A DNA stretch of 56,661 bases, the filler included, from Streblomastix strix (Eukaryota): the NCBI GenBank assembly GCA_008636045.1. It is 3 parts of 3 records of this genome, joined end to end, with 100 filler letters (N's around TTAATTAATTAA, not from the genome) between each part and the next. Parts side by side here need not be neighbours in the genome. Positions count along the whole stretch, not along the records: positions 18,928 to 37,748 come from SNRW01000581.1; 2 more parts are not named here. One strand, 5' to 3'. Made by a program: the position numbers and the translations under genes. The notes under the pieces are model-generated. The model was not told the origin of the DNA. It worked only from the letters and a program-made list of their open reading frames with translations, and did not search any database. Each line of letters begins with the position of its first letter. Positions within the stretch are counted from its first letter, which is position 1. Positions 13,288 through 35,141 of the stretch are shown piece by piece.

Positions 13288-13701
13288 TGTACATACATAC
13301 GAAGTTGCCTACAAAATGATACAATTACATTCAGCAATTCAGCCAGCAGCACCAAATTTTGATTTTACCGTATTTGCGCGTTGTAGTTTCGCAATTTTTA
13401 TATGCATCACAATTTTAAGTGAATTTGCACATATATACGTAATTGCCTAAAAAATAATATATTTATACTCTATTATTTGCACAACTGCACCAAATTATAA
13501 TTTTACTGCATATGCACATTGTAGCTTCGCTTATTATTTATATATTACATTTTTAATGATATATGTACATAAATACGTAATTATCCACAAAATAATAAGA
13601 TTACACTCAATAATTTGGCCATATTCACCAAATTTTTATTTAACCACATTCGCAGATTGTGGTTTCGCGTGATGTTTATATGTCACATTTTTTATTAAAC
13701 T
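13288..13701. repeat. Diverged 138-bp tandem repeat, 3 copies
   Basis: Units start TGYACATAHATACG at 13288, 13426 and 13564 and share the CACCAAATT and TTGTRGYTTCGC blocks. Confidence 0.85.
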
Positions 13702-13759
13702 CATATATTATTTTATTTTAATTTTAAGAGTATGAATTAGTAACACAAAATCAGTTAAA

Positions 13760-15570
13760 AAGATTTTGAAGATTAGGATAATTGTTCAGAAAAATCAAGA
13801 AGAAGGAACTCAAAATCTATAGTTAATTTCAGATAAAAGAGATGAATGATCGAGGAGGATTTTGATGACCAGAATAAGTCTATAACTCCAATTTATCATG
13901 TTATTGAAACTTCCACTAATGATAAAGATAGTTACACCAATTCTTTATTATTACTTCCAAATTACAATGGACAAAAGGGCAGTTAAAATTTGAATGATAT
14001 TAGACCTTAAACTCATTTAAGAATAACGCTTATTAGGATGAAAATGATAATATTTACTTATTACGACACTAAATTGCAACAATTAAAATAAAAAAATGTA
14101 AATTTGAATGATGCTAGACCTAAATAACCATAAAATATTAATGGTTAAGATGGAGAAGGTGGAAATAATAACTTATGACGACCATCAAATTTCAATAAAT
14201 AAAACATAAATGAAAATTTAATTGATATCTGATATTAAACTGAATAAAATATTGCAAACTTAAAAAGTATTTAATATCGATCTAAGTATAATTTACGAAC
14301 AAATGCGAGAAAGTTAAAGAACAAAGAAATAGAATATTTGTAACTTTAATTAAAACAAAAAAGGAACAGTAGCATGTTGCATAATTGCGGTCAATCCAAC
14401 ATAAAATGCAGCGCATGCGGGGCTTTACATTTTAGTTCCTAAATAATTAGAGAAAATTCAACATTTAATGATTATTGTAATCATGAAAAAGACAAAAGTA
14501 CTCCGGTCGATGAATTAAATGGAATAATGAAATATATATTCAATAAAGTTCATCCCAAGTTTTTGAATTTTATGGAGTATATCAGAAACTACAATTCAGC
14601 GCTTGCGAGTGCGGCACTTCGTGGAGATATTTAAGTGATTCCTGGGTGAAGTCCTTATATATTACGATTTCAAGGAATTCCATTGGTGCAAGTAGGTCCA
14701 TTATATCTTGAGAAAAATAATCCATCTTATGCATAATTGAATATAGTTGACGCCAGAGAAACATACACAAGAAGAAATACCAACAAAGCAAATGAATAAT
14801 GTGATAAGGAACTAATGTATTTATTGAGCCAATAGATAGAAGATAATAATCCAAATGCAGTGAGTTTTTGATCAATGAGAAATAAATTAGTTAAAAAGAA
14901 TGAAGCGGCACAAAATGAAGGAAGGGCAATTTAAGATCTTTATTTATATTTCATGAAAAAGGGACTGGGCTTACTGAGAATGTGCATTCATTACCTTCAG
15001 CGGATGAAATTGCAGCTGTTTGCGCCTCTATATATGAAGGAGAGTTTTAAGATGTATCATACGTTTCATTTCAAAAGCATGGAGGGTTAAACTATTTAAA
15101 TGTAACAGATCCAACAAGAGATGGCATGGTTTTTCTTGTGTCGTTCCCTGAAGCAGTTAGGAGTTGGAGTTGCAACGATTAAAAGAAAATCTTAGATAAT
15201 TGACATGCTAATCAATAGTAAGAAGAAGAAAATTTAGATCTTAATGAAATCAATGAAGAAAATGAAGATTTTCCAAATTAGCCAATCGATACAAATTTGA
15301 AGAAAAATATTTCATAAAGCGAATATTACTGATATAGAATTGCTAGAAGAGCAAACTTCTCATCACTACATCTCTCCAATAAGCTTTTCTAAGAAAATTT
15401 AATATATGCTGCTTTATCTGTAGTTTCTTCCAAACTAAACTTGGTAAATAATCATCAATAAACTCTAAGAGTTGAAAAGTATAAAGGGCTAAGAAACTAC
15501 ATCAACCGATTAATTATTTAAGAAGGAGTACTGTCAGGGGAAAGATTCGTACTTCCTAGTTGATTTAAGG
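13760..15570 (+). mobile_element. Decayed Helitron Rep/helicase ORF, N-terminal part only
   Basis: Helitron motifs in the expected order: Zn-finger KCSACGALHF (~14404), FMEYIRNYNSALAS, PY..RFQG...GPLYLEKNNPSYAQLNIVD, LPSADEIAAV, DPTRDGMVFLVSFP, EYY*YRIARR...KLFQ, HQQTLRVEKYKGL, GERFVLPS*F. Multiple TGA stops and frameshifts. Truncated before the Rep catalytic and PIF1 helicase domains; 5' boundary approximate. Confidence 0.9.
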
Positions 15571-15574
15571 AGAA

Positions 15575-15892
15575 TGTGATAAATTTTGCTTAACATTAAT
15601 TAATAATTTTACCAGTAATGATGGGTAATAAAAATGTCTTTACTGCTGTTGTAATTTAATCAGTACTTTATGTTACAAATTTAGTTAAATCAACTTTGAT
15701 TTATTTGAAAAATTGGCTTAAATAATTAAAGTATTTTATTATCTCTGAATCAATAATTTAAAATAAATTATTCCTATCGTTTATATATTTTTATTACTCT
15801 TCCTATTATTATATTATTTTATTTGCATATTCTTACTAAATAGATTTTTCTTCTTCATCAATCATTTCTAAATCACTTAAGTTTTGATACAT
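15575..15892 (-). pseudogene. Truncated fiber-like ORF
   Basis: MYQNLSDLEMIDEEEK...DLTKFVTQSTDQITTAVKTF. The FVT.STDQ.IT..KTF motif recurs in the contig-2 fiber protein. Cut at the Helitron junction. Confidence 0.5.
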
Positions 15893-15917
15893 TTTTATTA
15901 CAAAAATAATAGGTTTT

Positions 15918-16481
15918 TCACTCATAATTACCATTCCTTAGTTTATTAATTGATATTTACATACATTTTTTATTAATATCATAAATATTAACAGTATCAT
16001 ATGGTAAATAGGAGTATTAATGAACCTCTAACTTTCTAAATTTAAGACTATTATGATAATAAACATTAAAATCTTAATTAAAACTGTATCCTTCAAAATC
16101 ATGTCCTTCATATATATTTAAACGTTGACTCCCTTTTGGTAAATCATCAAAATATTCAAATTTTTATCCACATCCAGTTTTATTTTTTCTATTTGTTTAA
16201 CATGTTAACCATCGTAAATTTTCCAATCAATTATCACTTTTTACTCTATTAATATTATCAATTTCTGGAAGATTATTAAGATTTGGTATAAATTACATAG
16301 CTAATATGCGATGTAAATAATAATACTTACTGTTTAAAGCAATTCCTTAATATCCTGTTGAGCTAATATTTATTATAAGAATATTTCCATTAGAAATTTT
16401 CCATATTGTATATAGTTAATCAGCAAGTATCTCATAATCGTCTTGAGCAATTAAGGTTTCTCAATTGTTTTACTCTGCCAT
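15918..16481 (-). pseudogene. HNH homing-type endonuclease (NUMOD4/HNH_3-like), disrupted
   Basis: MAEQNN*ETLIAQDDYEI...YLHRILAMQFIPNLNNLPEIDNINRVKSDN*LENLRWLT. This is the HR..A..FIPN...LP.VDH.N....DN...NL.W signature, with two TGA and a frameshift. Confidence 0.85.
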
Positions 16482-16507
16482 TTATTAAACAAGTAAAAAT
16501 AAATTAA

Positions 16508-17141
16508 TCAAAAACCGTTATCTGTAATATCTAACTCTAGTGCATCATTTAATCGGATTAAATCGCAATTAACTCGAAACAGTTTCTAAATAGAACTGAA
16601 CATGACATTATCTAATATTTTAACTGATTCATTTTTGATCAAAATATCTTGTATGAGGTTATATTATTGCTTCTTTTAATACAATCTCTACTTCTTATTC
16701 ATCATTCTAGGTAATCAAATTCCAAAATTTAATGACGTTATTTGATGAGAATATGAAATCATCACCTCGTTAACGATATATAATCGTACGCTATACAACG
16801 TCAATGACGAATTTTAAAACTATCATATTTGGATGGGAAAGATATTATAATTTAGGTTATTCTTCTGCTATTTATTTTATTGTTTCTTCTGGTTCAATCT
16901 GAGCAGTTGTTCTATCCACTTTCTAATATTTATTAACTTTATATTTCTTATAGGATATGGTTGTTTATGATTCATTTACAACATCCAATTATTCTTTTGA
17001 TTTAGCATTTATGCCAGAACTTTCAGTTTTAATCGTTTAATCGATCGTTGGCATTGATTTAATCCTGTTAATTGCATCATCGATCAATTGCAATCTTATT
17101 TTTTCTTCATCTGTTAATTCTTTACGTTTAATTTTTGATAA
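16508..17141 (-). pseudogene. Hypothetical virus-like ORF, frameshifted
   Basis: SKIKRKELTDEEKIRLQLIDDAINRIKSMP...LNDALELDITDNGF*. Start codon lost; lies directly upstream of the HNH gene. Confidence 0.45.
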
Positions 17142-18827
17142 TTATTTTTATAAAATTTTTGATAAATTAATTATTTTATCACAATTATACAATTACTGTT
17201 CAAAAAAATAACTTATTGATTGAGATTGTTAAATTGCAAAATTCGATACTATGCATATTCGTGTATATAAATTTCTAAAGAATTTTCATCTATGGTTGAT
17301 GTTCTTTTGGAATATGATAGAATATGAATGTAAAAATAGTAATGAATAGAAAAAATTAATGAAATCATGGTTCATCAGTACCTTCCAGATCAGTCATTAG
17401 AAAAATTTATACCTTAAATGCTATTTTTTTCATATAATTATAAAATTTAATAGAACAGATATGAGCTCAAGTTAGATATATTTTACTTATATATACATAT
17501 ATAATATACATACATAATATTAATATTATATTATCTCATCTGAATCTTTAGAAAAATTTTCTTCATTTGATATTTTCATCATGCTGTATAATATTATTAT
17601 TATAATAATTTCAATCGTTATTAAATCAATAATTTTTTTCAATTGATTTATAATTATTTTATAATAATTTATTCATTGAAATTGGAAGAGTATCAATTTA
17701 CTGTTACTTAAGAATTTTGATACATAATTCCAAAACAAGATAATAATTTAATATTAAATATAATTAAATATTTAATAATTAAATAATTTAAATTAAATTA
17801 TTATAATATAAAGTTATATGATATCAAAAATCATATATACGTCCGAAATAAATAAGCTTATCAAAATTAAATAAATAAATTAAGCTAGATTTATAATGGT
17901 TTAATTGATGATCAGTTTTTAACATTAATAAACTTCATCATTTATTTTTCATTATATAATTTTATTATGATCTAATTTCCATCGAAAGTTTTAACATAGC
18001 GGTAGTCAAACATATCACCTATCACAACTCACAATTCGTTCAATTAACGAACTTAATCGAAAATATGATAAGTTTCGATTTTAGAACTATATATATTACT
18101 TTTATCGTATTTATTAATGCATTATTTGATAGAAGTATTTTTATATTTATTTATCTATTTATATTAAAAGTTTTTATTTAGATATTTTGTGATAGAATTA
18201 TAATATTAATTATTTTGGTCAACCATTTTATATTTCATAACGTAGCAACTATATTATTAGTTTAATCATCAGTTAGAATTTTAGGTTAACGTGATTTGGA
18301 TCATTTCAGATAACAATCTTGGATTAAATCTTTCAGTAATGGACTTTGACGAATAGGAGCAATTGATTTTTTTATTCAATTAATTTTTGAAAAAAAATCA
18401 TATGAATTGATATCTTTTTTTATTTAAATCGTCTTCATAATAAATTTTATTTTTCACTTTTATATTTATCAGCTATGCATCGACTAAGAAAATATTCACT
18501 AAACAACAGAAAAATGAATATAACCAATATATTGCACTAAAAAATTACTCAATTGTTACAATATAATCTATATCATAATAAAAATAAAAGTTCAATTTAA
18601 GACATATTATTTCAAGCAGAATTTTTTTTAGCAAAATCAAATTTGTTCGTATGGGTTAATATAACTGTGGATGAACTAACAATTGATTTATTTATATTTT
18701 CAATGATATTAATGGAATAATCAATAAGATTGTGATTTTTGAGCACAATTTCTTCTTTCTGCGATTAATTTTTTTTAAAAATAAAAAATTTCTTTTAAAG
18801 TTGCATATTTTTTAATAAATAGATTTT

Positions 18828-18927
18828 NNNNNNNNNNNNNNNNNNNNNNNNNNNNNNNNNNNNNNNNNNNNTTAATTAATTAANNNNNNNNNNNNNNNNN
18901 NNNNNNNNNNNNNNNNNNNNNNNNNNN
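18828..18927. other. Artificial contig linker (44 N + TTAATTAATTAA + 44 N)
   Basis: Exactly 100 bp with an all-frame stop linker; identical to 37749-37848. Confidence 0.98.
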
Positions 18928-18972
18928 GTAGTATAATATAGCAATGATGGAACAAAAATAAACATACTAAAC

Positions 18973-19308
18973 TCATGAAATTTCATCAATTGAAATAACT
19001 TTCTTATCTATTAATACACTAATTAATTTATCTAATTAATTATTCAAAGAGTCAGAATGCCAAGCATTATCATTTTCAATTATGCTATTATTTTTATCAC
19101 GACTTTTTCTCAAAGAGATTGCGCCTTAGAGTTTAGTAATACAAAACCCTTTGACTTTAAATGTCTTATTTAATTTTTATGTAGTCATTTAGTCCATTGA
19201 TTCCTTATTCAATACAAGATACTATTTGAATTCATCAACTGTATCAAATGTTACAAACTCAGGCAAATACTTCTCTAAAATCTTCAATTATTGTAGATTG
19301 TTGTTCAT
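18973..19308 (-). pseudogene. Small Maverick-associated hypothetical protein
   Basis: MNNNLQQLKILEKYLPEFVTFDTVDEFKQYLVLNKESMDQMTTQKLNKTFKVKGFCITKLQGAISLRK followed by a frameshift. Resembles small ORFs of parabasalid Mavericks (recollection, not searched). Confidence 0.55.
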
Positions 19309-19382
19309 TTTATTAACTTCCTTCTATTTACTGTCAAATATTACTAGACTCGTTTTATTTGAAACAAAATCATAATGTTTAA

Positions 19383-19754
19383 TCAAAATTCAAAATAGAT
19401 TTCAAGTACAAATGATATGTTATTTTAATCAACAAATTCACTAACAATATTCTTAAACCAAAATTATGTACTTCTATCATGATTTAGTTGATTAAAGTGT
19501 TTATCTGTACATTTTTCATCACATCTACTTATATACTAATCATTATCTTAATCTTCTTATACAAATGATGCATGTAAATAAAGATCTTAATCAATTAATT
19601 GCTTATTTGTTCTACATTATTCAAAAATATTCTCTCTATTATTTTTCGATGTGACAAATTCTACAGGCAGTTGAAACTGGTTAATCCCTTCATCTGTTTG
19701 TACGGTTGAATTTTAAGTTAATATCATCCGTTTTCTGTTAAGTTATGAGACCAT
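19383..19754 (-). CDS. Putative minor capsid (penton-like) protein, 123 aa
   Basis: Intact ORF: MVSQLNRKRMILTQ...FQLPVEFVTSKNNR...LYLHASFVQ...TQFWFKNIVSEFVDQNNISFVLEIYFEF*. All-beta pattern ending in a hydrophobic strand, as in polinton/virophage minor capsid proteins; near the MCP gene. Confidence 0.5.
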
Positions 19755-20109
19755 TTTTATATCCAAAAATAAACAACAAAGTTGTCTGGTATAAATGCTA
19801 AATTCAATGATTGAACTATTCTTCTTTTTCAAGATATGCATCAGCTATGCGTATTAAACCTCTCACATAATCTAGCACTGTATATAAATTTTATGCGTAT
19901 TTTTTTTTAATTTTGCATTAAAATCTTAAAGTTCTTTAGTCTTTTATCAATGTGTATTCAGTAGTTATGTTTATAGTTGTGTATGTAACTCATATGTTTA
20001 TTGTTCCATTTTAGATTAGATAAAAATAATTACTTTATTTAATAAAGCAGGCAATAAAATTGCTTATTAATCAAAGAGTATAATTAACAGAGTTCAGAAT
20101 CTACGATTA

Positions 20110-20397
20110 TCACAAATCATTCTCAACTTCATATTATAGATATCTTTATTCTTCAAATTCATATGCTACTCTAGCATTATGTAACTTACATTAATCATTA
20201 CTAAGTTATTTCATTTATTTAATATACTTATATTTATCACTATCAATCTTAATTTTATCTTTGTAATCAGTGATTTGGTCATCTGTTAAGAATAATTAGC
20301 AACTATTTATCCAAAACTTTTCATAATTAACATATGGGATATTACTTGTCAATGTTATCTCATTTTCATTATTTGTATATATTATCTTATAATCCAT
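20110..20397 (-). CDS. Hypothetical viral protein (~95 aa)
   Basis: MDYKIIYTNNENEITLTSNIPYVNYEKFW...YNEVENDL*, preceded by a TAAAATG start context. Confidence 0.5.
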
Positions 20398-20440
20398 TTT
20401 ATTAGATAAATAAATAAAAAATAATTATTAAATTAATTTT

Positions 20441-22150
20441 TCATCCTTCAATCTAACTTATCACTTTATCAAATGTTTTATTAACATCATAAACGCATGA
20501 GCCTCCATTAGCAGGTCCAAACAGCCAGAATGTATCATGTATAGTGCATAGAATTGGAGTAGGTGGTCTTTTACCCATTAGATCAACATTATTATAACAA
20601 TCTATATCACCTTAATAAATTTGTGCTCCTCATAATTCAACTGATACATTTTAATTCTGAGTGTATAATCCTTCAAATGTTAGTGCACCATTACTATTAC
20701 GTTCACATTATAGAGTGATCATGAAAGAAGTAAGATCAGTGTGAGGATTCAATCTCATTGAAGCTGTATTTCTTGGTGTTGTCAAAGCATCTTCGAATTC
20801 ATCAGTTGCTTCGAATTACAGATCTTGATTACTTGCATTCAATTACATTTAGAAGAATTATTAATCTAGTGTATTCATTGGCATACCCTGGAAATTTCTT
20901 CAACATGTAGTAACTTACATATTATGATAGCATGGATTTTCATAACAAGTTATTGCTCTAGCATCTTTAGGAAAAAGCAAGCATAAGTCAGTTACATGAG
21001 AAAATGGAATATTTTATGATGTTCTAATTCCTGTTTAGTAGTACTTGTTAGAAATGACCATGTTTCAACTCTCTGTGAAGGTACAACAAATGGTCTATTA
21101 GCATAGAATTCACGCACTCTTTATAAACATTCATCTGTTGTCTTATATATTCTTATATTTGCTGTCAATTTAGTTACAACGTAATTTTTTATTGATAATG
21201 TCACTGGACTAATACTACACATCAAATTCTTCAATCCACTATCTATTATTTGTTCAATACTTATTTTTGTAATAAGATCTGCAATACGTCCCATTTGAGT
21301 AAATTACTTAGTATATTGATAATCCAAACTCCAATTTCTGAAGAAAAGATCAATATTCAATTTGTCCGGTCCGCTTGCCATGAGATCAGTCTTATTCATA
21401 GTGTAGTATTTAACCGTACTGATAATTGGATTCATTTAGGCTAATACGAATGCGTTGGTGTTAATTTTAAATTTAATTTTCAAATCATCGAATAGTGAAT
21501 TAGGACAGTCAGTAAACCCACTAAATACAAGGATATCATCTAACGGAATTGATAATCAAAATCTTATAGGTATAGTATACGGTACAGAAACTTAATCTTT
21601 AATATCATCTTCAATCTCTCTTATTGCTACATAAGTTCCACAAGCTGATATGTCATTTTTGCGTATATTTTCATACAGTGAATGAATGTGTTTTCTATTA
21701 TTTTTCTCATTTCGCGGTTTAATAGTGTTATAGATAAATTATTCGGTAGTTGAATCATTCTACAACGTTCAATCAATAGTACTACCCCTATGATAAATAG
21801 TGTATTCTCTTATAACTTAACTAGCTGATTTTAGTCCAATGAACAATACTGTTCCATCTTTATAAGCCTCTTCAAATCCTTCAAATTTGTAGTCAAACTG
21901 AACATTAGCTGTGAGTACTATTGAAAGAAATGATTTCTAAATTAATGTTACATCGTGATCAGTGTCAGATAAACTAATTAAAATTTCCTTATCGAATAAT
22001 ACAAACATTTAGCTCTCCGGTTTTATTACTTTGATTGAATCTTGGTGTTCTCCATCATTTCTAAATGCAACAACAGAATTACTTTTTAATGTTGCTTCGA
22101 TAGTCCCGAGTTATTGCAAATGCATTGACTTATTAAGAAAACAGTTCAAT
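20441..22150 (-). pseudogene. Putative major capsid protein (Maverick/Polinton type, ~560 aa), disrupted
   Basis: LFIGLKSASQVIREYTIYHRG...EQFIYNTIKPRNEK..RKHIHSLYE...ACGTY...SIPLDDILVFSGF..PNSLF.DLKIKF...FVVPSQRVE...LLFPKD...ERNSNGALTFEGL...PILCTIHDTFWLF. Beta-rich, capsid-sized and similar to Trichomonas Maverick MCP-family sequences as I recall them. Four in-frame TGA and at least one frameshift. Confidence 0.7.
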
Positions 22151-22214
22151 TTTATATTTGAAGCAAAAATAAACTAATCATATGCAGTAAGTTAAACTTT
22201 GAATTGAAATATTT

Positions 22215-22622
22215 TCAAAAATCTTCTTTACCAATTTCTTGAATAATATATTGTGATCCATTTATAGCTTAATTACTTGGAATCCCAAGATTAGTTCCCA
22301 TAACCCTATTTGTATTTCTTGAGACATTCGGATTAAGTCTTATGTATCTATTATTTCCAATTGATTATCTTACTCTAGGTTCATCAATGAAATTCCCTAC
22401 ATCTTCTCTAAAATTTGTCATGTTCGTCACTTTGTCTTAACTATTATTTGCATATATTAAATCTAAACCACTTTACACAACTTATAAACCTCTACTTACT
22501 ATAGGTGGAGCGAGGGTATCGATATATGGTTTAAGGGGTTTATATATATGTGAGCCAACCCAGCTAGCTCCTTATCCAAATTTTTGTGCTATCTATTTGA
22601 ATTTTTGAAAGATTCCAGCCAT
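22215..22622 (-). CDS. Small protein with N-terminal cationic amphipathic helix (candidate membrane-lytic virion protein), 135 aa
   Basis: Intact ORF beginning MAGIFQKFKQIAQKFGQGASWVGSHIYKPLKPYID, immediately upstream of the MCP gene. Confidence 0.65.
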
Positions 22623-22679
22623 TTCATTTACGAAAAATAAACATCATTAGAGGCTGAATCGTATTAACTAACAAATTAT

Positions 22680-24296
22680 TCAAACAAAGTAACACCCACT
22701 AATATATTAATTAACAAACTTATCTGCTTTTAATTCAGATGATATATGAATATGCCAGCGAGCAGGATTGTCCGTATCAGCAATCGTGAGATATGCGGAA
22801 GGAATATCTTGAATTGGATCAGTGTTGAAGTCATATAATATCATAACAGGAAACAATAATGTCCTTTTGGGATCTATTGACTAAATCATACTAAGTATAT
22901 ACAATTTAACTTAAATAAACCCTTTCTATCTCAAATGCATATTGAACATGACTAATTTATTAACAGTATCATCAATAATATAGATCTTAAAGGCATCTAA
23001 GTCATATGAAGTATAGGCTATTGCAAGTAATTAGTCTCTTGATACCTCTATTACTGTATATTATGGAAATACTGATAGTGGAATAGGCATTGGTGGTAGA
23101 ATATCATATTACATAATCACACTATCTATATGAGATATTGGTTGTCCATTTGATGTTATGTTATTCTAATTTTATTCATATTGTTATGAATCAATTAAAT
23201 AACTTCCACTAAATTCACATAAATCTATAGGATAATACCCAAATCCTTAATTCACAACATCATCTAGAGTGTCATTTCTATTAATCTATATCATACCAGC
23301 GAATAAGGTAAAGGAGGTCTTTATTGGGAAGAATTTAGCTAATCTAGGGTATAAATCAGAATCTATTGTTTTAAATACTTTGAATACTTTATTTACATGT
23401 TAACTGCTAACTTCAGCTTGGAAATTAAATGTACATATTGGACCTTCTTTAACAAAATATGCAGCTCTTAGGGGACTGAATGTATTATTATTCACTAATT
23501 TAGTATTGTTAATGAAATAGTTAGATAGTAAAACAGGAATACTTGGATCATAAGGTTGAACTTCATCACCTATTGCCTCCGTTTACTTCAATATAACATC
23601 TTATACCCATGAAAATGATTTCATTCCATCAATAACAGAATTGATATGCCAGTCATCAACAATATTTATCTTTCAATCACCATTTACATCATTAGTTGCT
23701 CTCTTTAATGGTTCATAATCCGTATAATAAACACCTGCAATTGCAATATGAGTATTACCTTTAATTGGAGTAACTTAATCAACATTTCCAATTGACAGAC
23801 CTAAATAATGTCCTTTTTCACTAATATATCCCATTACATTCTGTTTATGACCAACATCATCTCCTAATACTAATGCATGTTTGCTAAATGGCCACAATTC
23901 TTCAAGAAAGTTAGTGAACACAAAGCCCATGAAATCATTACATAGATACAGTCCATTGTTATATTCTACTTTGTTTCTCAACTTATAGAAATAGAAGTAT
24001 TCATCTGCTGGATTATACATTTATACATTAGCTGCTAATTAACTCTTAGGAATTTTAAATATTTTAACTTATTGTATTTCAATAGGTACAATAGGTTATG
24101 GAATTGGTAATATATTTAATTTATCATCATTATCTTTAACTTAATCTTGAAGATATTATAGTACAACAATGATTTGATTAGCTATTCCATCAACAATCGA
24201 TTTAGGCTCACATTCATGAATATAAGCTTATAATTCCGGGAATTATGATAGTCCTACAACATCCAATAATGCTTCATCAATGTATACATTGCTCAT
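22680..24296 (-). pseudogene. Putative receptor-binding protein with ~3 beta-head domains and a dockerin-like Ca-binding loop (538 aa, one internal TGA)
   Basis: Single frame from ATG 24296 to TGA 22680. Repeated head-like units (e.g. YFVKEGPICTFNF...LYP...FFP...GMIQIN...FSGSY). DVNGD*KINIVD at ~23655-23690. Confidence 0.6.
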
Positions 24297-24362
24297 TTTA
24301 TAGTCCAAAAATAATACGAAGTCTTATATCCTTTCAGGATTAATAGTAGTCGATCTACAAAA

Positions 24363-27300
24363 TCATTTAACCCATGTAGCGGATGCACATTAAATATATG
24401 TATTAGTTGTTGATTTACAGGTAATAAGTCCAGTTGAAAGAGAAATCGATACATAACCACCATTATCGATAGTATTGTACGGAAATGGGATATATGTTAT
24501 AACAGCAACGTCGTCCTAAACTAAGTAATCAGGGTTAAATGTTCCCATATTATAATTTCCTCCATTAGCGAGTAATGAAAATATATAAAGATTCCCGATT
24601 CTTATTAATTTATATTATATTACTGCACCATTCATACCACTAAATGCAGATGATGTTAAATCTTCAATCCCACCAAATGATGATAATAATCTATCTCCAC
24701 CACCAGCCAATAAGACAGATGTATCATCTTTACCTGTTTTAGCAAATCCAGCAGCATTAACATTTAAATTGAATGTTTTTGTGCCATATATCGTTTAATT
24801 ATCATAACGACTAATAAAAGCACTATAAATTTCTGCTCCTGTCAAATAATCTTCATCAAACTCCGATATTGATAACTCATCATCATCTCTTCGTAATACT
24901 CCATGAATTATTTAAAGTTCTTAACCCGTTTTCTTCACATAATTAGAATCATCAACGCTTCCACTTGCGAACTCAGATAATGGTTTCGTTGTTCCATTTA
25001 TTAATAATACTTGCTAGTCTGTACCACCTGAGTTAATGAATTATGTTGCTGTTAAATTACCTCTAATAGAACCGCTATAGATAGACGAAACGAATTCACT
25101 TTCCACTGCTCCTAATGTTACATAATCATCATCTAGTGGCTCTGGATATGGTTGGTCTAGTGTTGTTTTTCGTTAAATTCCTTAAATATCTTATACATCA
25201 CCATCTTTTTTTACATAATTTAAATCACGAATTGTGATAGTGAATTCTGAGATTGATTTAGTGCCACCAGCTCCAGGTAATACAACAACATTATCAGCGC
25301 CTGATTTGATAAATGATGAACCAGTTACAGTTGACATTCCATCTATAGAACTTACGAATCTACATGCATTATTGAATGTCTTATTTGTATTTATTGTTTA
25401 TGAAGTACTTAAAGTCATATAATTGGAAAGTTCGGTTGTATCTGCATTCTCACCTAATAATTCATCTGTTTCTATTTTATTGTAATAATCAGTCAAATCA
25501 ACATCTCCGACATCAACCTATGATATTAATTGATCAGTTTCTATTTTGATACATGTTGTTGATTAATTTGCTTTATTATCTAAGAGATTATTTGTTTCAC
25601 CTTTAGTGCATGAATCAATCAGTTATGTCTTATCTGTTTTAAGTAATAAGAGTGCATCATCTTCACTTTTCGAATAAGAAACTCCATTATCTGCTTTATT
25701 ATTTAATAAGTTATTTGTTTCACCTTTAGTATATGAATCAATCAGTTATGTCTTATCAGCTTTCAATAATAAAACTGCATCATCTTCTGTCTTGGTGTAT
25801 GTTGTTGATTTATTAGGTTTCAATAATTATAGTGCATCATCTTCACCTTTTGTATAGGAAACTCCAGTATCTTCTTTATTATTTAATAAGTTATTTGTTT
25901 CACCTCTAGTATATGAATCAATAAGTTATGTCTTATCAGCTTTCAATAATTAAAGAACATCATTTTCTGTCTTGGTATATGTTGTTGATTTATCAGCTTT
26001 CAATAGTAATAGTGTATCATCTTCTGATATAGTGTATAAAGCACTTTAAATATCTGCAATTTATCTTACTCCTCCACCTGCGCAAACAACACTTGAATTA
26101 TCATAAGTTTAAAACATGATTCCAATTGAATGTATTGTTGTATTAAGTGTCTTTTGACCACTAATACTTTGATCATAATCTGTATCAACAAAATTTTTAT
26201 TTTTAGCTGGAGTTAATATATTTCCATTAATTGATATATCAGTTATTGCATTGCCTCCTCCAGTAGCTGTTCTTAAATTTGAGATAACATTACTCATATC
26301 AGGTAGTTCAGTTTCTAGTACTTTTAAGTCTGTTCCATCCCACCAATAATCTGTTACTTCCTTATCAACAATAAATAAATTGTCTCCAATCACTAGTTTT
26401 GCTAAATTATCTTGAACAGCCAACCAGTCATTCAACTCTGGTTATGTTGAGAATACATATGCATTTGACTTTCCAGTTGCAATATCTCTAACTTCTTATA
26501 ATTTCGGTTGTGTTACTAACGAACTTACTAACATATCTTCTCCACCTGCAAGAAGAATAGATGCATCATTTTTACTCAATTTCGATATGTTGGAAACACT
26601 AATTACACCGAATTATTTTTATCCTATTATTGTTTGAGCAGAAACTAAATCAACATAATTTGTCAAATCAGCAACATTAGCTTTCAGTAATAATAGAGCA
26701 TCATCTTCTGTCTTGGAATATGAGTCAATTAATTCAGTTTTATCTGCTTTCAGTGGTAAGAATGCATAAGTTTCTGTTTTAGTATAAGTATCTGATTTAT
26801 CAGCTTTCACTAATAGGAGAGCGTCATCCTCTGGCTTGAAATAACTTTCCACAATATCAGCAACATTAGCCTTTGCATCGAGTAGAGTATCAGTTTCTGT
26901 CTTTGAATAAGTATCTAATTTATCTGATTTTAGTAATAAGAGAGCACCATTTTCTGTCTTAGAATAACTATCAACAATATCTGCAACATTTTCCTTTAAT
27001 ATTAAGAGAGCATCATCTTCTGTCTTAGAATACGAGTCAATTAATTCAGTTTTATCTGCTTTAACATCGAGTAGAGTATCGGTTACAGTCTTAGTATAAG
27101 TATCAGTTTTATCAGCTTTTATATCAAATATTTCATTTTATCCAGGTCTAGTGTATACGTCAGGAGCACGAGCATTATTTATCATATTGATCTGATTATT
27201 AATGTTTTCGACCTATTCGACTAAGCCACTTGAATAATATCTAATTTTTCCGAACAAAATTTCATCATGTTTTATGAGCACATCTAAAGAGTATAAGTCT

Positions 27301-27878
27301 GCATCTGCGATTTAATTACCAAAAATAATTTAGATCAATCAATGAATCTGAGATAGAACTGCTATTAATCTTTTACTTGCTACAGACAATAATTTTGATG
27401 AGATATCTCCAAGATCAAGGATATTAGTTATTTTTCTTACTTTTTATAGGCATATTTTATATGAATCTCTGAGAAGATTGACTTTATCGATATCTAATGT
27501 AAGTATATTTACATTATTTATTGTAATATCTCTTAATGTTCTAGTGCCATCGTGCATAAATTTCCCACAACATCCTTCATCTTCAGTATTAAGGATAACT
27601 TAGTTTTCCACTACATCAAACGTATATGCAATAATTCTTATTAATTAATGTTCAGTTAATATGAAATGTGTTGATTTATTAGTCATATGTTCATATTCAT
27701 CTATTATATCAAGTAATTATCGACATATTGATAGATCTGGAACAATTATTTCTTCCAGTATAGATGATCTTCTTCTTGAACGTACAGAATATACAAACAC
27801 TTTATCTTATTCCTTTTCGAATTGTGAATCTATTTCAACTATTGCAGGAATTATCGGTACGGATTATCGAGGTGACAT
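24363..27878 (-). pseudogene. Long fiber/tail-fiber-like protein (~1170 aa, at least one internal TGA)
   Basis: One reading frame that includes the standard-code fragments ending at 26852 and 26435. Two arrays of YSKTE(D/T)D.LL..KADK repeats, about 5 copies of QTI.G.KTF / F.K.G.....VLLAGGG shaft motifs, and a C-terminal LIRIGNLYIF...GYVSISLSTG...SATWVK head resembling phage receptor-binding domains. Confidence 0.75.
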
Positions 27879-27963
27879 TGGTTCTCTTTAACTTATTTTT
27901 TCAGATGGTGATACTGATCCTTTCAATGATATTTATTCTTACCAAAAATAACAGGTCTAATAG

Positions 27964-28107
27964 TCACGAATAAAGTGATAAATTAATTGGAGTCTTTTCC
28001 TCTTCTTTAGTTAGCGTGTTATAATCAGAAGCAGCAATAAGAAATAAGCCAATGTTTGCAATAGCGATGAGCATTAATGAAGTTCCAATAACTATATCGA
28101 ATAGCAT
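27964..28107 (-). CDS. Possible small single-pass membrane protein (47 aa)
   Basis: MLFDIVIGTSLMLIAIANIGLFLIAASDYNTLTKEEEKTPINLSLYS*: hydrophobic helix plus charged tail; fills the gap between the fiber and Fic genes. Confidence 0.4.
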   Translation of the reverse strand: MLFDIVIGTSLMLIAIANIGLFLIAASDYNTLTKEEEKTPINLSLYS

Positions 28108-28126
28108 TTCATTTATTATTAAAAAG

Positions 28127-28834
28127 ATGCCAAGATAAACTATTAAAATTAAAGAGTTTACAATAACGTTCAATGATGATGGTTATGATTAAATAGGTAA
28201 AGTAATAGATACGATTGATGCAGATAGATTAATGTATAAGAAAATTATGAATTCAAACTGTATTGAATAAGATATATTATCAAATGATGACATTAATGAT
28301 GCAATTGAATATCTGAAGAGTAATGAAGTGCTATATATCGATGAACTGTACTAAGTACTGTTCAAAAGAGAGGCGTTTGGGCATTGTAGTGTATATGTTA
28401 ATGATAAGAATAATTCAAAAATAATCTCTTCTGCTAATGTTGGAATTTAGCATAAAAACATCGATCCAGAATAACTGTAATAGTTAGTGGACTTCGCTTA
28501 CGAATATGACTAATCAAATAAGGTTATGGTTCTGTATACATGCTATCTATTATATGAACGTATTCATTCGCATGAAGATGGGAATGGTAGAATGGGAATA
28601 TTATTGTTTCTAGAAAATATATACCAATTGACTGACTCGTTTGTTCCTTTATCAACTGCATTACGATATAACAAGTAAGTGAAACTATTAATGAATGAAA
28701 CATTTGAGCAAATCAGTTTTGGAGAAATAACAAAGAAACTATAGATCAAAAGTGGTGATGCAGCGATCTACATAGTTGAGATATAAGAGATTGATTTGAA
28801 AAATTTTTATGAGATTATTATTGATAATTAATGA
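28127..28834 (+). CDS. Fic/Doc-domain protein (AMPylase family)
   Basis: 235-aa ORF MPRQTIKIKEF... containing YLLYERIHSHEDGNGRMGILLFLE (Fic motif HPFxDGNGRxxR) at ~28565. The frame stays open past the TGA to 28918, so the stop may be a secondary mutation. Confidence 0.85.
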
Positions 28835-29270
28835 ACAAAATCATAATATTTCACATTAAATTTAGATGATAATACAAGTAAATTAATTGTTAAATTATTG
28901 AATGTGATTAGAATGTGATTTATTTGTGAGCATGCGAAGCCGAATGCATTGCCGCAGAGTAACGATCCCGTGTCTAATAAAATATAGAATTCAGAGATAA
29001 GAATTCCGTGTATCTGCTAACGATTTATAACTCCTCTTTATTCGACGCCTTTAGAAAGCTATCATAACTAACTTATAGGATTTACTTTAAATTAATGATA
29101 TAATTGATCGATATAACCAGTGAAAATGAATTATTTTTGCGTTATTGGTATGCGTTAATGGTTTATGTACAAATGAGATATAATGTCCAATATTTCGAGT
29201 GCACATACACTGCATGAGGATTATTTTAAGATAATTCTTGAATTAGTATTCTATCATGGAGATATACATT

Positions 29271-29584
29271 AATTTATCCATCTGCACTTGGTGCACTGCC
29301 TGCACGGAGTAAGTTGATAAAGAATTTTGAGATCTGCCATCAACCATTTCGCCATATTAATATTTAATTAGACACGATATTAGCAGAATCATTAGAAAAA
29401 ATAAACTTGATCCAATGATTACATGCAATAATCAAAATCGTTCATTTTATAAAATATTACACACTTCAGAATGGTGATGATTCAATAATATTTCAATTAT
29501 AGCATAAATAGTTGATGGCAGATCTCAAAATAGTTTGCCAAGTTACCCCGTGCAGGTCGTGCACCCCGTGCAGATGGACAAATT
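29271..29584. repeat. 79-bp imperfect inverted repeat (arms 29271-29349 and 29506-29584) with TGCAC iterons
   Basis: By hand count 67/79 positions match, including a perfect 21-bp ATTTTGAGATCTGCCATCAAC. Spacer is 156 bp. Each arm has three TGCAC at 9-bp period. Confidence 0.9.
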
Positions 29585-29651
29585 GATTCATTACTCTATG
29601 ATTCTAGCACAAAAAATAAATTCATTCATTTAACTGCACGATCACTTTTAT

Positions 29652-31050
29652 TCATATGTATTCATTATTTTCTTCTTATTTCTCTAGTTCAACTATTTAT
29701 GCTTCAGCTTTTTTCTCATCAGCATCTTCATCTGGCATATTCTTATATATCTTAACCATTTCTTCTTTCATCGTATAGAATCTCTTTCTTTATCCATTTG
29801 TTTTTCTCCATACTTGGCTACATATATTATTTAACGCTAATTGAAAAATTTTTAGTACCATATCTTGAGGTTTCCATAGCTCTACTTGTGATATGATTAC
29901 TCCATCTTTGAACTACTTGAAATGATCAATTATAATGTCATCAACTTTTGACTTTGATGCTCTTATTATATCTTTCTTAGCTTATGTCATTGGAATATTT
30001 CTTGGATTAAATTAAGAAATTTCTCTAGTCATAAAGAATGTGAATAAATTAATATAAAATTCTTCATCAAAACTATTGCAAAGATTAGTGAAGTAAGCTA
30101 GATCTCTTCGATGAACTGAATTGCATTTGAATACAACATAATGTCTATCATTATTCTCAATTTATATAGGAAAAATATTATTAATTACAAGTATCATATT
30201 CACTACATTCTCAACTTCATGCTTTGGTATATTTTTTTCATTAACAACAAACGAATATTCAGTAATTATCGACTTCATTGCATCCATATTGGACATTCTC
30301 GATTCTCCAAAATTCTTCATTTCATTAGCAATTGTCAATATTTTATTTTCGATAGCTGCATTAAACTTTCCAACAAAATCATCTATATCAGTAATGTTCT
30401 TCGATGAGTATCCTGCTAACAGTTCACATAATACGTTAGTGAATACATTCTTTCCAATACCTTATAATCCTTGAAGTATAATGGCAGTTTCAGTTTTCTT
30501 GCCAGCATTCTACACAATAAAAGCAAACTAATTTAGTAAATATTCATAAATCAATTCATCATTTGCAGAGATAGTATCTTTCGCTAATTCTAAGAATCCT
30601 TCTATTTTTGTATAGTTCACTTCTTCTAATTGTAAGTACTTATATCCTTAGAATACACTAAAAATCTTAGGGTTTTAACTAATGAATCTTACACCTATCT
30701 TCTCGAATAGTGAATTATATTATTCTAAGGCATCGATTGCAGTTATATTCTTTTTACTATCTTACCAAAGTCTTATTAAACGTAATTAATCATAGATAGC
30801 AGTCTTATTTTATAATGAATTGTATTAGTATTATGTAAACAATCATATTCTTTAATGACAAAACATCATCCGTTTTAGCAAGTTTCAACTTTTATTATTT
30901 TAAGCAAATCTTCAGTAACTGATTTTAATTAATTTTAATATTATTCATTTAATGCTTTACTAGATACATCTGTTAATGTGAACACATCTTTTAGGTCAAT
31001 TTCATGCTTCTCAATTTATTACACCGTATCAACTATTTTCGATTATTTTT
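29652..31050 (-). pseudogene. Superfamily 3 (D5/NrS-1-like primase-associated) helicase, 5'-truncated
   Basis: KKTETAIILQGLQGIGKNVF (Walker A at 30447-30470), GKFNAAIENKILTIANE (Walker B), MKSIITE...NEK...ILVINN...IENNDRHYVV (motif C / Arg-finger region). One TGA and a frameshift near the 5' end. Confidence 0.9.
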
Positions 31051-34000
31051 TCACTTCAATTACTTTTATTACTAATTTGGTTATTGCTGTTATTGTTACT
31101 TATTTTATTTAGGAATGAGAAATGATGGTTTTAATATGAGTGTGGATGGAAATATCTTCTTATCCGCTGCTTATGTTATTGAATTTAGTTTTATTATTGG
31201 TGAAGCTAAACTAATATTTGCATTTCTATAAATGTTGCTGTTTAAATTGCTTTTATTGTTAATGTTTGCATTTGAAGTTAAATTCTATGGTTTAGGAATT
31301 ACATTAATAGTTAAAGTTGATTTAATTGAATTTTGTTCTTATTTTAGTGAAATTTAAAGAGGAAGAGGAGGAGGTTCTAGGAGAGAATATTATTGATGTA
31401 ATTTGGGTTAATTTTAATTTTCAATTATTAATTTATCTTTCTTTTCATTATCTTCTTTGTCTTTCACCATTTCTTTCTCTTATATTTTATTATTCTCCAT
31501 TTTCTTCCCAATATTTGACTTTTTTCTTATCATTATTTTCTTACTTTTTTGCTAATTCACTTTTACAGTATCTTTTGTTGTATCTTCATCAGAATCATCA
31601 ATTATAATTTCTTCTCTTTATTATTATTAATTCTAATCCTTATCCACCTCTTTTAATTCATCTTTCTTATTATCTCCACTATTAACTTACTCATTTTCTA
31701 TATCTTTATTCATTTATTTCTTTTACTTATAATGTTTACTGTCTTTATCATTATTAACTTTATTTCCAGTTTTATTTTTATTTTTCTTATTTTCTTCTGT
31801 CTGTTATTTCAATTCTTTATATCTTTCTCTTCTTCTTGCGTTCCTTTAAAATTTTTGCTAATCACCTTTTTTTTATTTTTATAATATTTCATCTTAATTA
31901 TAATCCTCAGAATCATCGTCATCTTCCTAGGTTTATTTATTCTTCTTCTTAACTCTTCTAATTGCAACTGTTTTCTTTGTATTTCCATCTTTTTTATCTT
32001 CACCTTCTTCTTCATCATCATTATCTTATTCATCATCATCTTATTCATCATCAACGGAATCCAATAATCCAGCATTAACCATTCTATCTTCAAATTCAAT
32101 CCATTATTCTCTTTCTTCTTTCTCTTCTCTTTGTCTTTCTCTTTCTACTCTCTGTCTAATCATTATCCTCATTTGCTTCTTCTTCTCTCTTTCCATATTG
32201 TGGATTCTCTCCATCTCAATATTGGCTTTATGAGCTTTATATTCTTCTCCACCAAGTGGGAGAAATACCTGAATGTGAATATATGAATATATGAATATAT
32301 ATAGAATAAGAATAAATTAGATGGTAAAGAGAGAAATGGAATAATATGAATAACAATAAATTATTTAATTAAACACACTTCCATTTCACCTTATCCTTCA
32401 ATTGATTGCTTTTTAACCCATAAACCCAGTTCTTCTACTTCTTATTCTTCTTCTTTTTTTTTATTCTTCTAATTTTCTTTTTCTTTATTTAATTAATTTA
32501 AATTACTGTTAGAATCAAATTCTTCATCTTCTTATGCTTCTAAATCAATTTCTCCTTCAATGAATATTTCATCTAATATCTAATCTTTATCCTTCTTTAT
32601 TTCTTTCTCATTAGCATTCTCATATTAAAATGAATCTGGATCAATATATGAAGGACCAAATATATATTCAAATCCGCTATTCCATTTGGTTATGTCTGAA
32701 TGCCAATCTTCATTGATATTACTGTTTAAGTTGTTTCCTTATTCATCAAATTTCTATTTTCCACCTTTTGTTATTTTTTCTGCAAATAGAGAATTATTTT
32801 AATTTGTTCTTGGTCTTTAAATGTTCAAAGTTTGATGTTTTAATTTCTTCTTTACTTTGACATCTCCAGAAACCCAGGGAGAAGATGAAGAGTAAAAAGG
32901 AGATGAAAGTGAAGTGGAATGTTGAAGTTGCTGAATAAGAAGAAATAAGAAATAAGAATAATAATTGTATATCAATTTAATTTAATTTTATTTAATTACA
33001 TACTTTAACTTTCATCCATTATTCATCCCAATCTTTCCAACGACTATTTCCTAATCCAAGTGCCAATCCTTAATTAAACTGAAATTAATTTAATATATTA
33101 ATTAAATAATATAAATATAATTAAAATTATTATTATATTCGAATACTTCTTAACTCAACCATTTACTCCAATCGTCCAACCAATTATTCTGTTTCTTATT
33201 AATTCTTATTTCTTATAGACTATCTTTATCAATATCTTTATTATCCAACTATTCCGTCTTCTTTTCATTAATTAAAGAAGAATTATTGAATGAATCGCTA
33301 TAACCATAAATATTGGCAATTTTCATCTTCATCATTTCATCTGCAATTTATTCTTCATTCACATCATTCATATTCAGACCTTATTATATTTCATCTTTTA
33401 TTTCATTATATTCATCAAATATAGAATTCTTGTTTTCATTCTCTATTTCATATAAATCTATTAACAAATTATCCTTCTCTTTATTCCCTGATATTCTTTC
33501 ATATATTTTCTCATTTTCATCTAAAAACATCATCGCTAAATCATCATCTTCACTCCATTCTGAATAATCAATATTGTCTCGACTATTCTTCTGATCTTTC
33601 TTATAGTTTGATTTGGAGTAATTTTTGGTGTATTTGGAATATTTTCCTGTTTTCACTTGTTTTGATTCTTTTTCTTTGTTTCTGAGTTTGCGTGAAAAGA
33701 ATTGAGGAATAATTTAAGATAATTTTTATTCTTATTCTTCATTATTGACTAAATTCCTTATAATTTCATCTTCTTTTAATTTTTATTCTTCATTATTTTA
33801 TTCAGATTTGACTTTTATTTCATCCTCAAAATCTTTCTTCATAATTTCTTCTTCAATTACAGGTGATTATAAATTAATTGATTCTGGTTTGTTTCCATCT
33901 TCATCTTCTTTAACTGAATTTTATACATTTTCTTCATCTTAAGGTTTGAACATATTTGGAAACATATTCATTAATGTTTTACGTCCAAGATTTACAGCTT

Positions 34001-35141
34001 CTTTTTCTTTCTCTTTTGCTATCTCCAATTCTTTCAATTTCTTCTTCAATTCATTCTTTCTACTGTTATCTTATTAATTCTTATGTTTTCTCCTGTATTG
34101 TTTCCAGCTCTTCAGTTTCTCACGAAATTCTTATTCTTCTTATTCATCCCTCTCAATAAGCTCTTCATTTTCTGAACTCAATTCTTCTTCCGTGTCTGAA
34201 TCGCGTCTTTTCTTCTTTTTCTTTTCCATTGGTAGTTTTTTATGATCTTTTTCATAATCCTCTTCATCATCATCACTTTCATCATATGTATCACTTTCCA
34301 TCCAGTCTTCCCATTCAACTAAGTTTTAGTCAATTATATTATCCTTCCTTTTCAAATATTACTTCCCAGATTCAACTTCTGCATTATTATCTTAGCTCCC
34401 ATCAACAATTTCAACTTCATTTTCGCTTTCATTTATTCTTCTTCTCTTCAACTTATTTCCACTTTAACTTTTTTGATTTTTAGGAGTGATGATCTTTGTC
34501 TATTTTTTGAATAATTCTTATTTCTTCCCTTTCTTCATTTTTTATTTAAATAGAAAATCTTTCAGAAGTCTCAATCGGTAAATTAAGCCTTTTTTCTCTA
34601 AATTCAATTCATCAGAATATTCAGAAGACGAACTGTCAGATTCATTTTGATCAGCTTTTGTTCTATTTTTACGTTTTTCAATTCTTTATTGTTTTTTCTC
34701 TTTCTAATATTCATGTAGCTATCTTCTCATTAAACTAACTTCCTGCATTTCATCTTCAATCTCACTCTCTATCTCATCTTCACGAACTACTCCTGTTCGA
34801 TGTGATATTTGTGGACTTTAGATTGTTTGTCCAGCATCACTTCGTTAACTTTTAGTAGAGTCTAATTTTTATGGATGTTTGCTATCAGGACGTGAGAGAT
34901 GTTCCTGCTATTTTTTTGCCAAGCGATTAAGACGTCTTCGTTCAACAGCTTCTGTATTCCTCAATTACATAGGATATCTATTTCCAAAGAGCTCATCAGC
35001 AGATACTAATTCCGTTCTTATTTTTCCAGGAGTTAATTATTGTGGATTTTGCGAGTTATCTTCATTAGAACTATCATCCAGCACGAACACTTCAATGCCT
35101 TTTGGTTTATCACTTTAGCTTTGTGATTTATTGTTTTTCAT
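31051..35141 (-). CDS. Host hypothetical protein, highly charged and low-complexity, with ~3 introns
   Basis: ATG 35141 MKNNKSQSQSDKPKGIEVFVLDDSS... is open under TAR=Gln. GT-AG introns near 33085-33145, 32935-33000 and 32268-32378. Ends ...KPSFLIPKQNKQQQQQQPNQQQKQLK* at TGA 31051-31053. Confidence 0.7.

Follow-up and report, generated by a model that had tools for sequence, protein, structure and literature searches.

What kind of virus left a block of tightly packed genes, written in the TAR=Gln code of its host, at one end of a Streblomastix strix contig, and how would its intact relatives have copied their DNA? The window analysed here, a stretch of 56,661 nucleotides, joins three contigs through N-linkers; positions 1-18827 are unrelated to the element, which occupies the leftmost 12 kb of a contig of 18,821 bp. 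We consider it likely that the locus represents a degraded copy, truncated left and right, of a high-copy provirus family of the Metamonada group (MMN), the intact members of which are likely replicated by an AEP-Prim-Pol/SF3 enzyme and enclosed in icosahedral particles of double jelly-roll type.

Extent, genetic code and prior record of the element

The provirus remnant, an endogenous MMN Polinton-like virus, spans 18928..31053 (unstranded), as delimited by the N-linkers and by the end of homology to its relatives. The initial annotation described a decaying endogenous Polinton-like virus in the host's code, cut on the left. This description holds, as the capsid gene, SF3 helicase, Fic-like domain and palindrome are all present and the left boundary is the contig end, where an N-linker joins separate contigs, but the right end is cut as well, at a junction near 31053 into a host-like low-complexity ORF; homology to the relatives ends near 31053-31084.

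Translation with table 11 yields 10 ORFs of at least 100 aa across the whole window, one of them inside the element, within the fibre gene, while table 6 renders the element region densely coding. TAA and TAG account for 136 of the 186 Gln codons (73%) in the element frames, compared to 63-72% in four host ORFs. Of 60 aligned TAR sites, 48 are occupied by Gln in the majority of intact paralogues, so TAR use is a family trait rather than decay of this copy. Some 11 packed ORFs had been seen to open under this code; the dense coding is real, but TGA stops, frameshifts and a lost start break genes, and this copy is unable to make capsid protein or replicase.

That code-adapted Polinton-like proviruses reside in S. 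strix, a protist of the termite gut, is already known, with family, code use and capsid fold in print; the portions covered of Bellas et al. (2023; PMC10120064) report the S. strix elements, their table-6 code and 820 capsid copies of the Metamonada/MMN group. The expectation that standard-code mining would miss the element is thereby overtaken, and of the roughly 820 copies this locus is a single, damaged one. It shares organism, capsid family (cluster MMPC_40) and table-6 coding with the S. strix elements of that study, the covered portions of which treat S. strix capsid genes only and show neither a gene map nor a replicase, Fic-like gene, motif or palindrome. Neither the kept sibling gene order, nor the upstream motif, nor the 97-bp inverted repeat described below was found in the literature searched, which lay mostly outside subscription journals. 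The remaining value of the locus is thus anatomical, in that it offers a first gene order, together with candidates for the replicase, the promoter or initiator and the origin, for Metamonada Polinton-like viruses, which a 2026 preprint (bioRxiv 10.64898/2026.06.19.733378), in the portion covered, leaves ungrouped and not yet placeable in any group, their capsids being too divergent.

In each of the three runs aligned, including a run of a second study, 30 of 30 bins across 18928-31400 were covered, and 21,115 contigs of one run (X1) aligned to the element, mostly 90-99% alike, which indicates a multi-copy family. Summed depth was low at 19760-20175, 29328-29743 and 30576-31400, and is not taken as copy number.

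Probable virion genes and their common upstream motif

The major capsid protein (MCP) gene of the element (20441..22149, minus strand), recognized by homology to the paralogue P0004 and belonging to the MMN group, cluster 40 in the covered portions of Bellas et al. (2023), lies where a capsid gene had been annotated (20441-22150), though as a pseudogene bearing four internal TGA codons and a frameshift near 21035. It is 85-87% identical to intact 562-aa S. strix paralogues such as P0004, and has 216 homologues in total; all 120 of the matches listed are from S. strix. By eye, P0004 agrees almost letter for letter with the published representative EZS28_010462, for which the covered portions of the same study report a Foldseek match to the Sputnik MCP, a double jelly-roll, at E 2.6e-12. 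Membership of cluster MMPC_40 is reached via P0004; in addition, hhalign finds remote similarity to an MCP of parabasalid type, the MCP profile matching over 312 columns (E 8e-5) the 547-aa protein encoded at L082, a gut-metagenome locus. Among the atlas look-alikes of this 547-aa protein (0.97-0.98) are a cluster of mostly parabasalid members and clusters in which 14-29% of the members bear Sputnik_MCP and Capsid_N families. An AF2 model of the MCP built from a 50-row alignment of close paralogues is of low confidence (pLDDT 41); with this model Foldseek gave no match at E<=0.001, vaccinia D13 and picornavirus capsids ranking high but not significantly, and a VIA fold search reached a best Z of 3.6. 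P0004 did not match DUF4106 at E 0.1, the viral contig collection yielded no MCP relatives, and a degenerate MCP pattern had no match in metagenome contigs.

We infer candidate roles for two small proteins. The 123-aa product of 19383..19754 (minus strand) is a candidate minor capsid (penton) protein, since it has two remote relatives, 123-125 aa long (E 4e-5 and 1e-4), and an upstream motif; its AF2 model (pLDDT 37) is uninformative. The 135-aa product of 22215..22622 (minus strand) begins with an amphipathic stretch (hydrophobic moment 0.51-0.68 across residues 1-20) and is a candidate lytic protein acting on membranes, akin to protein VI; in intact members it would help entry. Its homologues (29-35% identity) directly precede the MCP in five divergent sibling gene models. 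Kinship with a 127-aa protein of L082 was rejected as not significant (78 of 1000 shuffles).

Upstream of these lies a 538-aa gene of unassigned function (22680..24296, minus strand), initially read as separate ORFs and as a second fibre. It is in fact one gene, prematurely interrupted by a TGA at 23673-23675, as its full-length 538-aa paralogues (79-84% identity) make plain, and 11 of its 65 other matches adjoin an MCP locus tag. Searches of Pfam, PHROGs, PDB sequences and phages found nothing similar to the protein, and the idea that it consists of repeated fibre-head domains was discarded, all six pairwise hhalign comparisons falling below 1% probability. Two distinct attachment proteins are therefore not upheld, and support extends to one fibre-like gene, that of a repeat-rich protein of about 982 aa (24363..27311, minus strand) with repeat families D1-D3. 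Its repeats match SPO1-like phage proteins, of which one of 14 records is annotated as tail fiber, and the protein would act as the attachment fibre of intact members. Residue 1 of its siblings P0220 and P0221 aligns at 27311, which is not an ATG in this copy, the first ATG being at 27185. Sibling gene models keep the order fibre, 538-aa gene, 135-aa gene, MCP.

Three further minus-strand ORFs have no assigned function: one of 111 aa (18973..19308) without a match at cut-off, one of 95 aa (20110..20397) without the motif upstream, and one of about 197 aa (27339..27932), its start placed by the upstream motif, which is weakly similar to the pre-helicase ORF of L082 (1 of 1000 shuffles; BLASTP not significant).

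The likely structural genes have in common the short upstream motif TTATTTTT[G/C]G, a candidate initiator or late promoter. It occurs on the minus strand at 19763..19772, 7-9 nt before the gene start, and with the same spacing at 22631-22640, 24305-24314, 27319-27328 and 27942-27951, making five gene starts altogether, one of which was itself placed by the motif; a variant occupies an upstream position at 22163-22172 (minus strand). Seven occurrences compare to a mean of 1.11 in shuffled sequence, an overstated excess, as the motif was picked after viewing the upstream regions. In intact members, this common element, probably an initiator for the host polymerase, would drive joint transcription of the structural genes, which share one orientation; should host genes prove to lack it, that would suggest that this amitochondriate gut protist hosts a transcription factor of viral or helper-virus origin. 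Among the matches listed in a search for oxymonad promoters, mostly outside subscription papers, nothing was relevant.

Predicted replication module, inverted repeat and Fic-like gene

The minus-strand gene at 29652..31053 is the C-terminal part of a predicted AEP primase-polymerase/SF3 helicase gene, recognized from DUF5906 (E 1e-17) and from its relatives; NrS-1-type helicase structures match at E 8e-36, and the SF3 helicase of the initial annotation is thus confirmed. It bears a frameshift near 30809, and about 330 N-terminal residues are lost at the junction near 31053. The gene model P0130 (EZS28_004147) is 100% identical across the helicase, and the closest full-length relative, P0131, is 86% identical and carries a Prim-Pol domain. 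Sequence comparison accordingly identifies the SF3 helicase as the C-terminal half of the putative Prim-Pol-helicase fusion known from relatives: the SF3 half of a Polinton-like virus replicase lies in the window, the Prim-Pol half in relatives, and the enzyme is broken in this copy. The motifs DxD and (T/S)xxGGxH are both present in 17 of 31 aligned long helicase relatives, including five of six S. strix rows, in a search limited to proteins of 694-2000 aa and hence favouring fused forms. Residues 1-310 of P0139 find Prim-Pol/PriCT clusters in the atlas at 0.94-0.96; a profile comparison of the N-terminal domain with P0169 gave no alignment to the Prim-Pol domain that Pfam assigns to the latter.

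The matching structures (PDB 6k9c/6k9e, 'Primase') we take, partly from UniRef labels, to be the primase-polymerase-helicase of phage NrS-1. Its helicase domain is homologous and its domain order is shared by the long relatives, whereas it is a phage protein and its primase half is unmatched by sequence here. According to the covered portions of two 2026 preprints (bioRxiv 10.64898/2026.06.19.733378 and 10.64898/2026.10.13.758929), AEP-SF3 replicases are common in Polinton-like viruses, where, as in group 2 Maverick-Polintons, an N-terminal AEP and C-terminal SF3 domain likewise replace pPolB; the tyrosine recombinase said there to accompany them is not seen in this fragment.

The observation that PolB, integrase and ATPase are not visible stands for the fragment, but 'no polymerase' was overstated: as the helicase relatives carry an AEP Prim-Pol domain, the family may still possess a polymerase. 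The 12-kb fragment, which has lost both element ends, contains no A32-like packaging ATPase, no integrase (RVE or tyrosine recombinase) and none of the pPolB, RVE integrase and cysteine protease of classical Maverick/Polinton group 1, nor, with both termini missing, a long inverted repeat linking two element ends. Integrase and packaging ATPase would reside in the missing parts.

An inverted repeat (29253..29602, unstranded), a candidate origin or terminator, separates the Fic-like gene from the helicase gene, which converge on it. Its two 97-nt arms (29253-29349 and 29506-29602), separated by a 156-nt spacer, are 81% complementary, fold with a z of -11.9 (0 of 100 shuffles) and each contain TGCAC three times with a period of 9 nt, so that the iteron palindrome first noted is indeed present. 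In intact members, the DNA would be copied by the AEP primase-polymerase fused to the SF3 helicase, this replicase loading at the inverted repeat, with its TGCAC units, that closely follows the replicase gene. An origin of the palindrome as a MITE was rejected, with no convincing target-site duplication; one X3 contig connects arm 2 with the end of the helicase gene.

The Fic AMPylase consensus motif is HPFxDGNGRxxR. The 235-aa product of 28127..28834 (plus strand, presumed start), proposed as a Fic enzyme, retains weak matches to Pfam Fic (E 9.4e-4; 20.4 bits, below the cut-off of 24) and PDB 4x2c (E 0.0044), but its motif, HSHEDGNGRMGI, is degenerate and lacks the canonical last Arg, and the 4x2c alignment shows HPFQDGNGRIGR at the motif position. 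It is a putative Fic-like enzyme, and the degeneracy may reflect decay of this copy. No paper pairing a Polinton with a Fic domain was found in a search mostly outside subscription papers.

Relation to Trichomonas-type elements and rival readings

Maverick-Polintons of Trichomonas vaginalis, Tritrichomonas and Histomonas likewise have MCPs of cluster 40, about 31-33% identical to those of S. strix (Table S5 of Bellas et al. 2023, in the portions covered), and resemble the S. strix family in high copy number. They differ in using the standard code and in the KilA, DNA polymerase and integrase reported or seen there, none of which is seen in this fragment. A helicase scan of the viral contig collection gave 79 distant loci (26-34% identity). 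In three metagenome loci of parabasalid type, L082, L083 and L085, a helicase of the same clade as in S. strix and the MCP gene are about 1.2 kb apart; the MCP is preceded on its upstream side by a small protein of amphipathic appearance, its similarity to the S. strix protein not being significant, and an rve-like integrase gene (Pfam E 1.8e-4) is present. There the helicase stands alone (447-462 aa), as opposed to its Prim-Pol fusion in long S. strix relatives. A tentative scenario, to which we give rather less than even credence, is that the Streblomastix branch swapped a Trichomonas-type pPolB for an AEP/SF3 enzyme firing from the TGCAC palindrome, with one TTATTTTT[G/C]G element for all virion genes and a non-canonical Fic effector; this combination was not found described in the literature searched, subscription papers being mostly outside it.

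The full element could instead be a classical Trichomonas-type Polinton, with pPolB, RVE integrase and ATPase beyond the left break, an accessory SF3 helicase and a gene set that looks odd through incompleteness. The left end is after all a contig break, the three metagenome loci combine an integrase with a stand-alone helicase, DDE integrases accompany PolB in Polinton-like viruses (2026 preprint, in the portion covered), and counts of T. vaginalis elements in the same capsid group relied on DNA polymerase genes. This possibility appears doubtful, since P0131 has the Prim-Pol domain and, in a weak test, no PolB, integrase or ATPase was recognized by eye in 10 unmatched S. strix gene-model stretches. 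That the capsid module is one mobile unit and the primase-helicase another, the latter including the palindrome and possibly the Fic-like gene, and that the two are adjacent by chance, is less likely still. None of the 13 other S. strix helicase models shares a contig with an MCP or 538-aa match among those listed, most of these contigs being short; the palindrome appears to go with the helicase in P0137, and independently mobile AEP-SF3 genes are proposed in the covered portion of a 2026 preprint. The helicase clade nonetheless sits beside MMN-type capsids in the three metagenome loci, near-identical and hence one case, and no repeat or target-site duplication is seen between the modules.

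The single decayed provirus preferred here also accounts better for the ORFs than ordinary host genes would: code and G+C content match the host, but hundreds of paralogues, kept order, the published capsid fold and a phage-type helicase make that reading vanishingly improbable, and copy number and capsid assignment already refute it. It is improbable, too, that the right junction, from host-like ORF into helicase remnant, is an assembly chimera or the real host-virus fusion gene EZS28_004147. The public model does splice 35141-31558 onto the helicase, and none of the contig pieces listed bridges the junction. Yet the helicase part begins mid-domain and the skipped part contains a viral frameshift; the fusion is probably a prediction artefact, as gene models in this assembly often merge adjacent viral genes.

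Capsid gene and genetic code

The element at 18928..31053 lies on the left of the middle contig (18928-37748; 18,821 bp), one of three divided by N-linkers at 18828-18927 and 37749-37848. Its proposed class, an endogenous Polinton-like virus (PLV), is borne out by its major capsid protein (MCP) family and, in the accessible portion of Bellas et al. (2023; PMC10120064), by the published assignment of S. strix EVEs, coded by the host's table, to the Metamonada group. That portion also counts 820 S. strix MCPs and already reports the S. strix element family together with its code and capsid fold. The gene set, initially annotated as unusual, is largely an effect of truncation, as the element is cut short at both ends.

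Translation of 22125-21010, within the MCP gene (20441..22149 (-)), with X at stops retrieved 216 homologues, and all of the matches listed (n = 120) were S. strix proteins. Intact 562-aa paralogues match the window MCP at 85-87% over two frames bearing four internal TGA codons and one frameshift, and this copy is therefore a pseudogene. The presence of a capsid gene is supported by these homologues and by a published Foldseek result for the paralogue EZS28_010462, which, in the accessible text, matches the Sputnik MCP (E 2.6e-12) and a Polinton MCP (PMC10120064); compared by eye, EZS28_010462 and the intact paralogue P0004 are nearly the same sequence. Our own structure model of the MCP (pLDDT 41) gave no significant match in a fold search, and Pfam DUF4106 did not match P0004. 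The MCP profile aligned to a 547-aa protein of the gut-metagenome locus L082 (E 8e-5), whose atlas neighbours include one cluster of mostly parabasalid members and others in which a minority of members carry capsid families, a route that agrees with the capsid assignment in the part of Bellas et al. available (PMC10120064).

Table 11 gives 10 ORFs of at least 100 aa in the whole window, of which 1 falls within the element; with table 6, the element reads as densely coding. In its frames, 136 of 186 Gln codons are TAR, compared to 63-72% in four host ORFs, and at 48 of the 60 TAR positions in the alignment most intact paralogues carry Gln, in keeping with the TAR=Gln coding first proposed. Because sibling copies are mostly 90-99% alike, decay of the window's copy cannot explain this usage, and the family would appear to have amplified under the host code.

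Probable structural genes and the upstream motif

The 538-aa gene (24296-22680 (-)) is a single gene with a premature TGA, and its 66 homologues, several exactly 538 aa long, all belong to S. strix. For 11 of the 65 non-self homologues, a contig of equal length carries an MCP locus tag no more than three tags away, and 2 further homologues are fused models found in both the 538-aa and MCP lists. In fused sibling models the fibre gene comes first, followed by the 538-aa gene, the 135-aa gene and the MCP. Two fibers had been claimed for the element. The 982-aa repeat protein is fibre-like, its repeats matching SPO1-like phage proteins in 14 records (1 annotated as a tail fiber), but the label of a second fibre is unsupported, since searches of Pfam, PHROGs, PDB sequences and phage genomes gave nothing for the 538-aa protein and it failed a test for repeated head domains. 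In place of the proposed Fic enzyme there is a Fic-like ORF, whose Pfam score falls short of the cut-off and whose motif is degenerate; the literature searched held no paper with both 'Polinton' and 'Fic domain'.

The 135-aa gene precedes the MCP also in divergent subfamilies, and its product, amphipathic at the N-terminus, is a candidate lytic protein with what we take to be a protein VI-like role. Two distant relatives match the 123-aa minor-capsid candidate in length; its structure model was uninformative.

The motif TTATTTTT[G/C]G, chosen after inspection, occurs in 7 copies in the window against a shuffle mean of 1.11. Of these, five precede the 123-aa, 135-aa, 538-aa, fibre and 197-aa genes, each 7-9 nt from the start (the last start being placed by the motif itself), and a variant sits 13 nt upstream of the longer MCP start. 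The element ahead of the 538-aa gene is read through in eight sibling models as well, and L082 genes show T-rich runs in a comparable upstream position. The simplest reading is a putative initiator, presumably of the Trichomonas-like kind. In sequencing runs X1 and X3, both of one sample, contigs connect 19784 with 24363, probably through a ~20-nt upstream sequence common to the 538-aa and 123-aa genes, or from a rearranged sibling.

Candidate replicase and inverted repeat

The claimed SF3 helicase (29652..31053 (-)) is confirmed as an SF3/NrS-1 type, with a frameshift near 30809 and a sharp junction near 31053 to a low-complexity host-like ORF. The S. strix gene model EZS28_004147 is 100% identical to this helicase frame; it also joins the viral remnant to the low-complexity host-like gene at 31051-35141 (-), probably a prediction artefact.

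A search limited to relatives of 694-2000 aa returned 40 matches, of which the closest full-length protein, P0131 (802 aa, 86%), aligned only from residue ~326-335 onward. Among the 31 relatives aligned, 17 (with 5 of the 6 S. strix sequences) show the primase-polymerase (AEP) motifs DxD and TxxGGxH in the N-terminal part that this copy lacks. An atlas search with that part of the relative P0139 reached clusters of the Prim-Pol and PriCT types at 0.94-0.96; when profiles were compared with P0169, the helicase aligned but the N-terminal part did not. Two preprints (bioRxiv 10.64898/2026.06.19.733378, 10.64898/2026.10.13.758929), in the parts available, call AEP-SF3 replicases common among PLVs, and Streblomastix sequences are already noted in a primase/polymerase tree in the available part of the Yaravirus preprint (10.1101/2020.01.28.923185). 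Against a simple fused replicase count the length filter, which favoured fusions; the near-identical loci L082, L083 and L085, in which the same helicase clade stands alone beside a Metamonada-type MCP and an rve-like integrase; and the 13 other S. strix helicase models, 0 of which lie on the contig of any listed match to the MCP or the 538-aa protein.

The claimed iteron palindrome is upheld by an inverted repeat far above chance (z -11.9), with three TGCAC units per arm at a 9-nt period, the units being kept while the spacers differ between arms. In one of six frames, the read-through tail of the sibling gene model P0137 can be aligned over both arms, outscoring 300/300 shuffles, a modest hint that the repeat may stay downstream of the helicase. 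The repeat is a candidate origin or two-way terminator. The replicase type, shared motif and palindrome were absent from the literature searched, and preprint supplements and figshare annotations may already contain them; the accessible text of the egovirus preprint (10.1101/2024.03.23.586382) has no mention of Streblomastix.

The Metamonada-type elements of the gut-metagenome loci L082 (336-8556), L083 and L085 use the standard code and comprise a fibre-like gene, an rve-like integrase, an amphipathic 127-aa protein, a 568-aa coiled-coil protein, the MCP and the helicase; their MCP is by eye close to a Histomonas MCP in the portion seen of Bellas Table S3 (PMC10120064). Helicases of the same clade in locus L080 (605-3142) and proteins P0156-P0164 are fused to an N-terminal domain of a second type (LYFDFD...SMHVV), probably a further AEP subtype, which suggests that domains have been swapped.

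Flanking sequence

Flanking host genes also use TAA/TAG=Gln, for example the Gln-rich TOR-kinase-like gene on the third contig (46671-56487 (+)), which has HEAT and mTOR_dom matches. The first contig holds an intron-free 3448-aa ORF (127-10473 (+)) with vWA-like segments by eye, and broken-up frames at 13800-15500 (+) (CSACGALHF, HGGLNYLNVTD...FP) that we take to resemble a Helitron Rep/helicase region. On the same, unrelated contig, disrupted HNH-endonuclease-like frames (LPEIDNINRVKSDN / LENLRWLT) at 15921-17054 (-), beside a 141-aa ORF, are possibly another viral remnant. In the stretch 18928-18964, the middle contig opens with GTAGTATA and has a motif-like TGTTTATTTTTG at 18964 (-); this might mark a terminus or one more gene beginning there.
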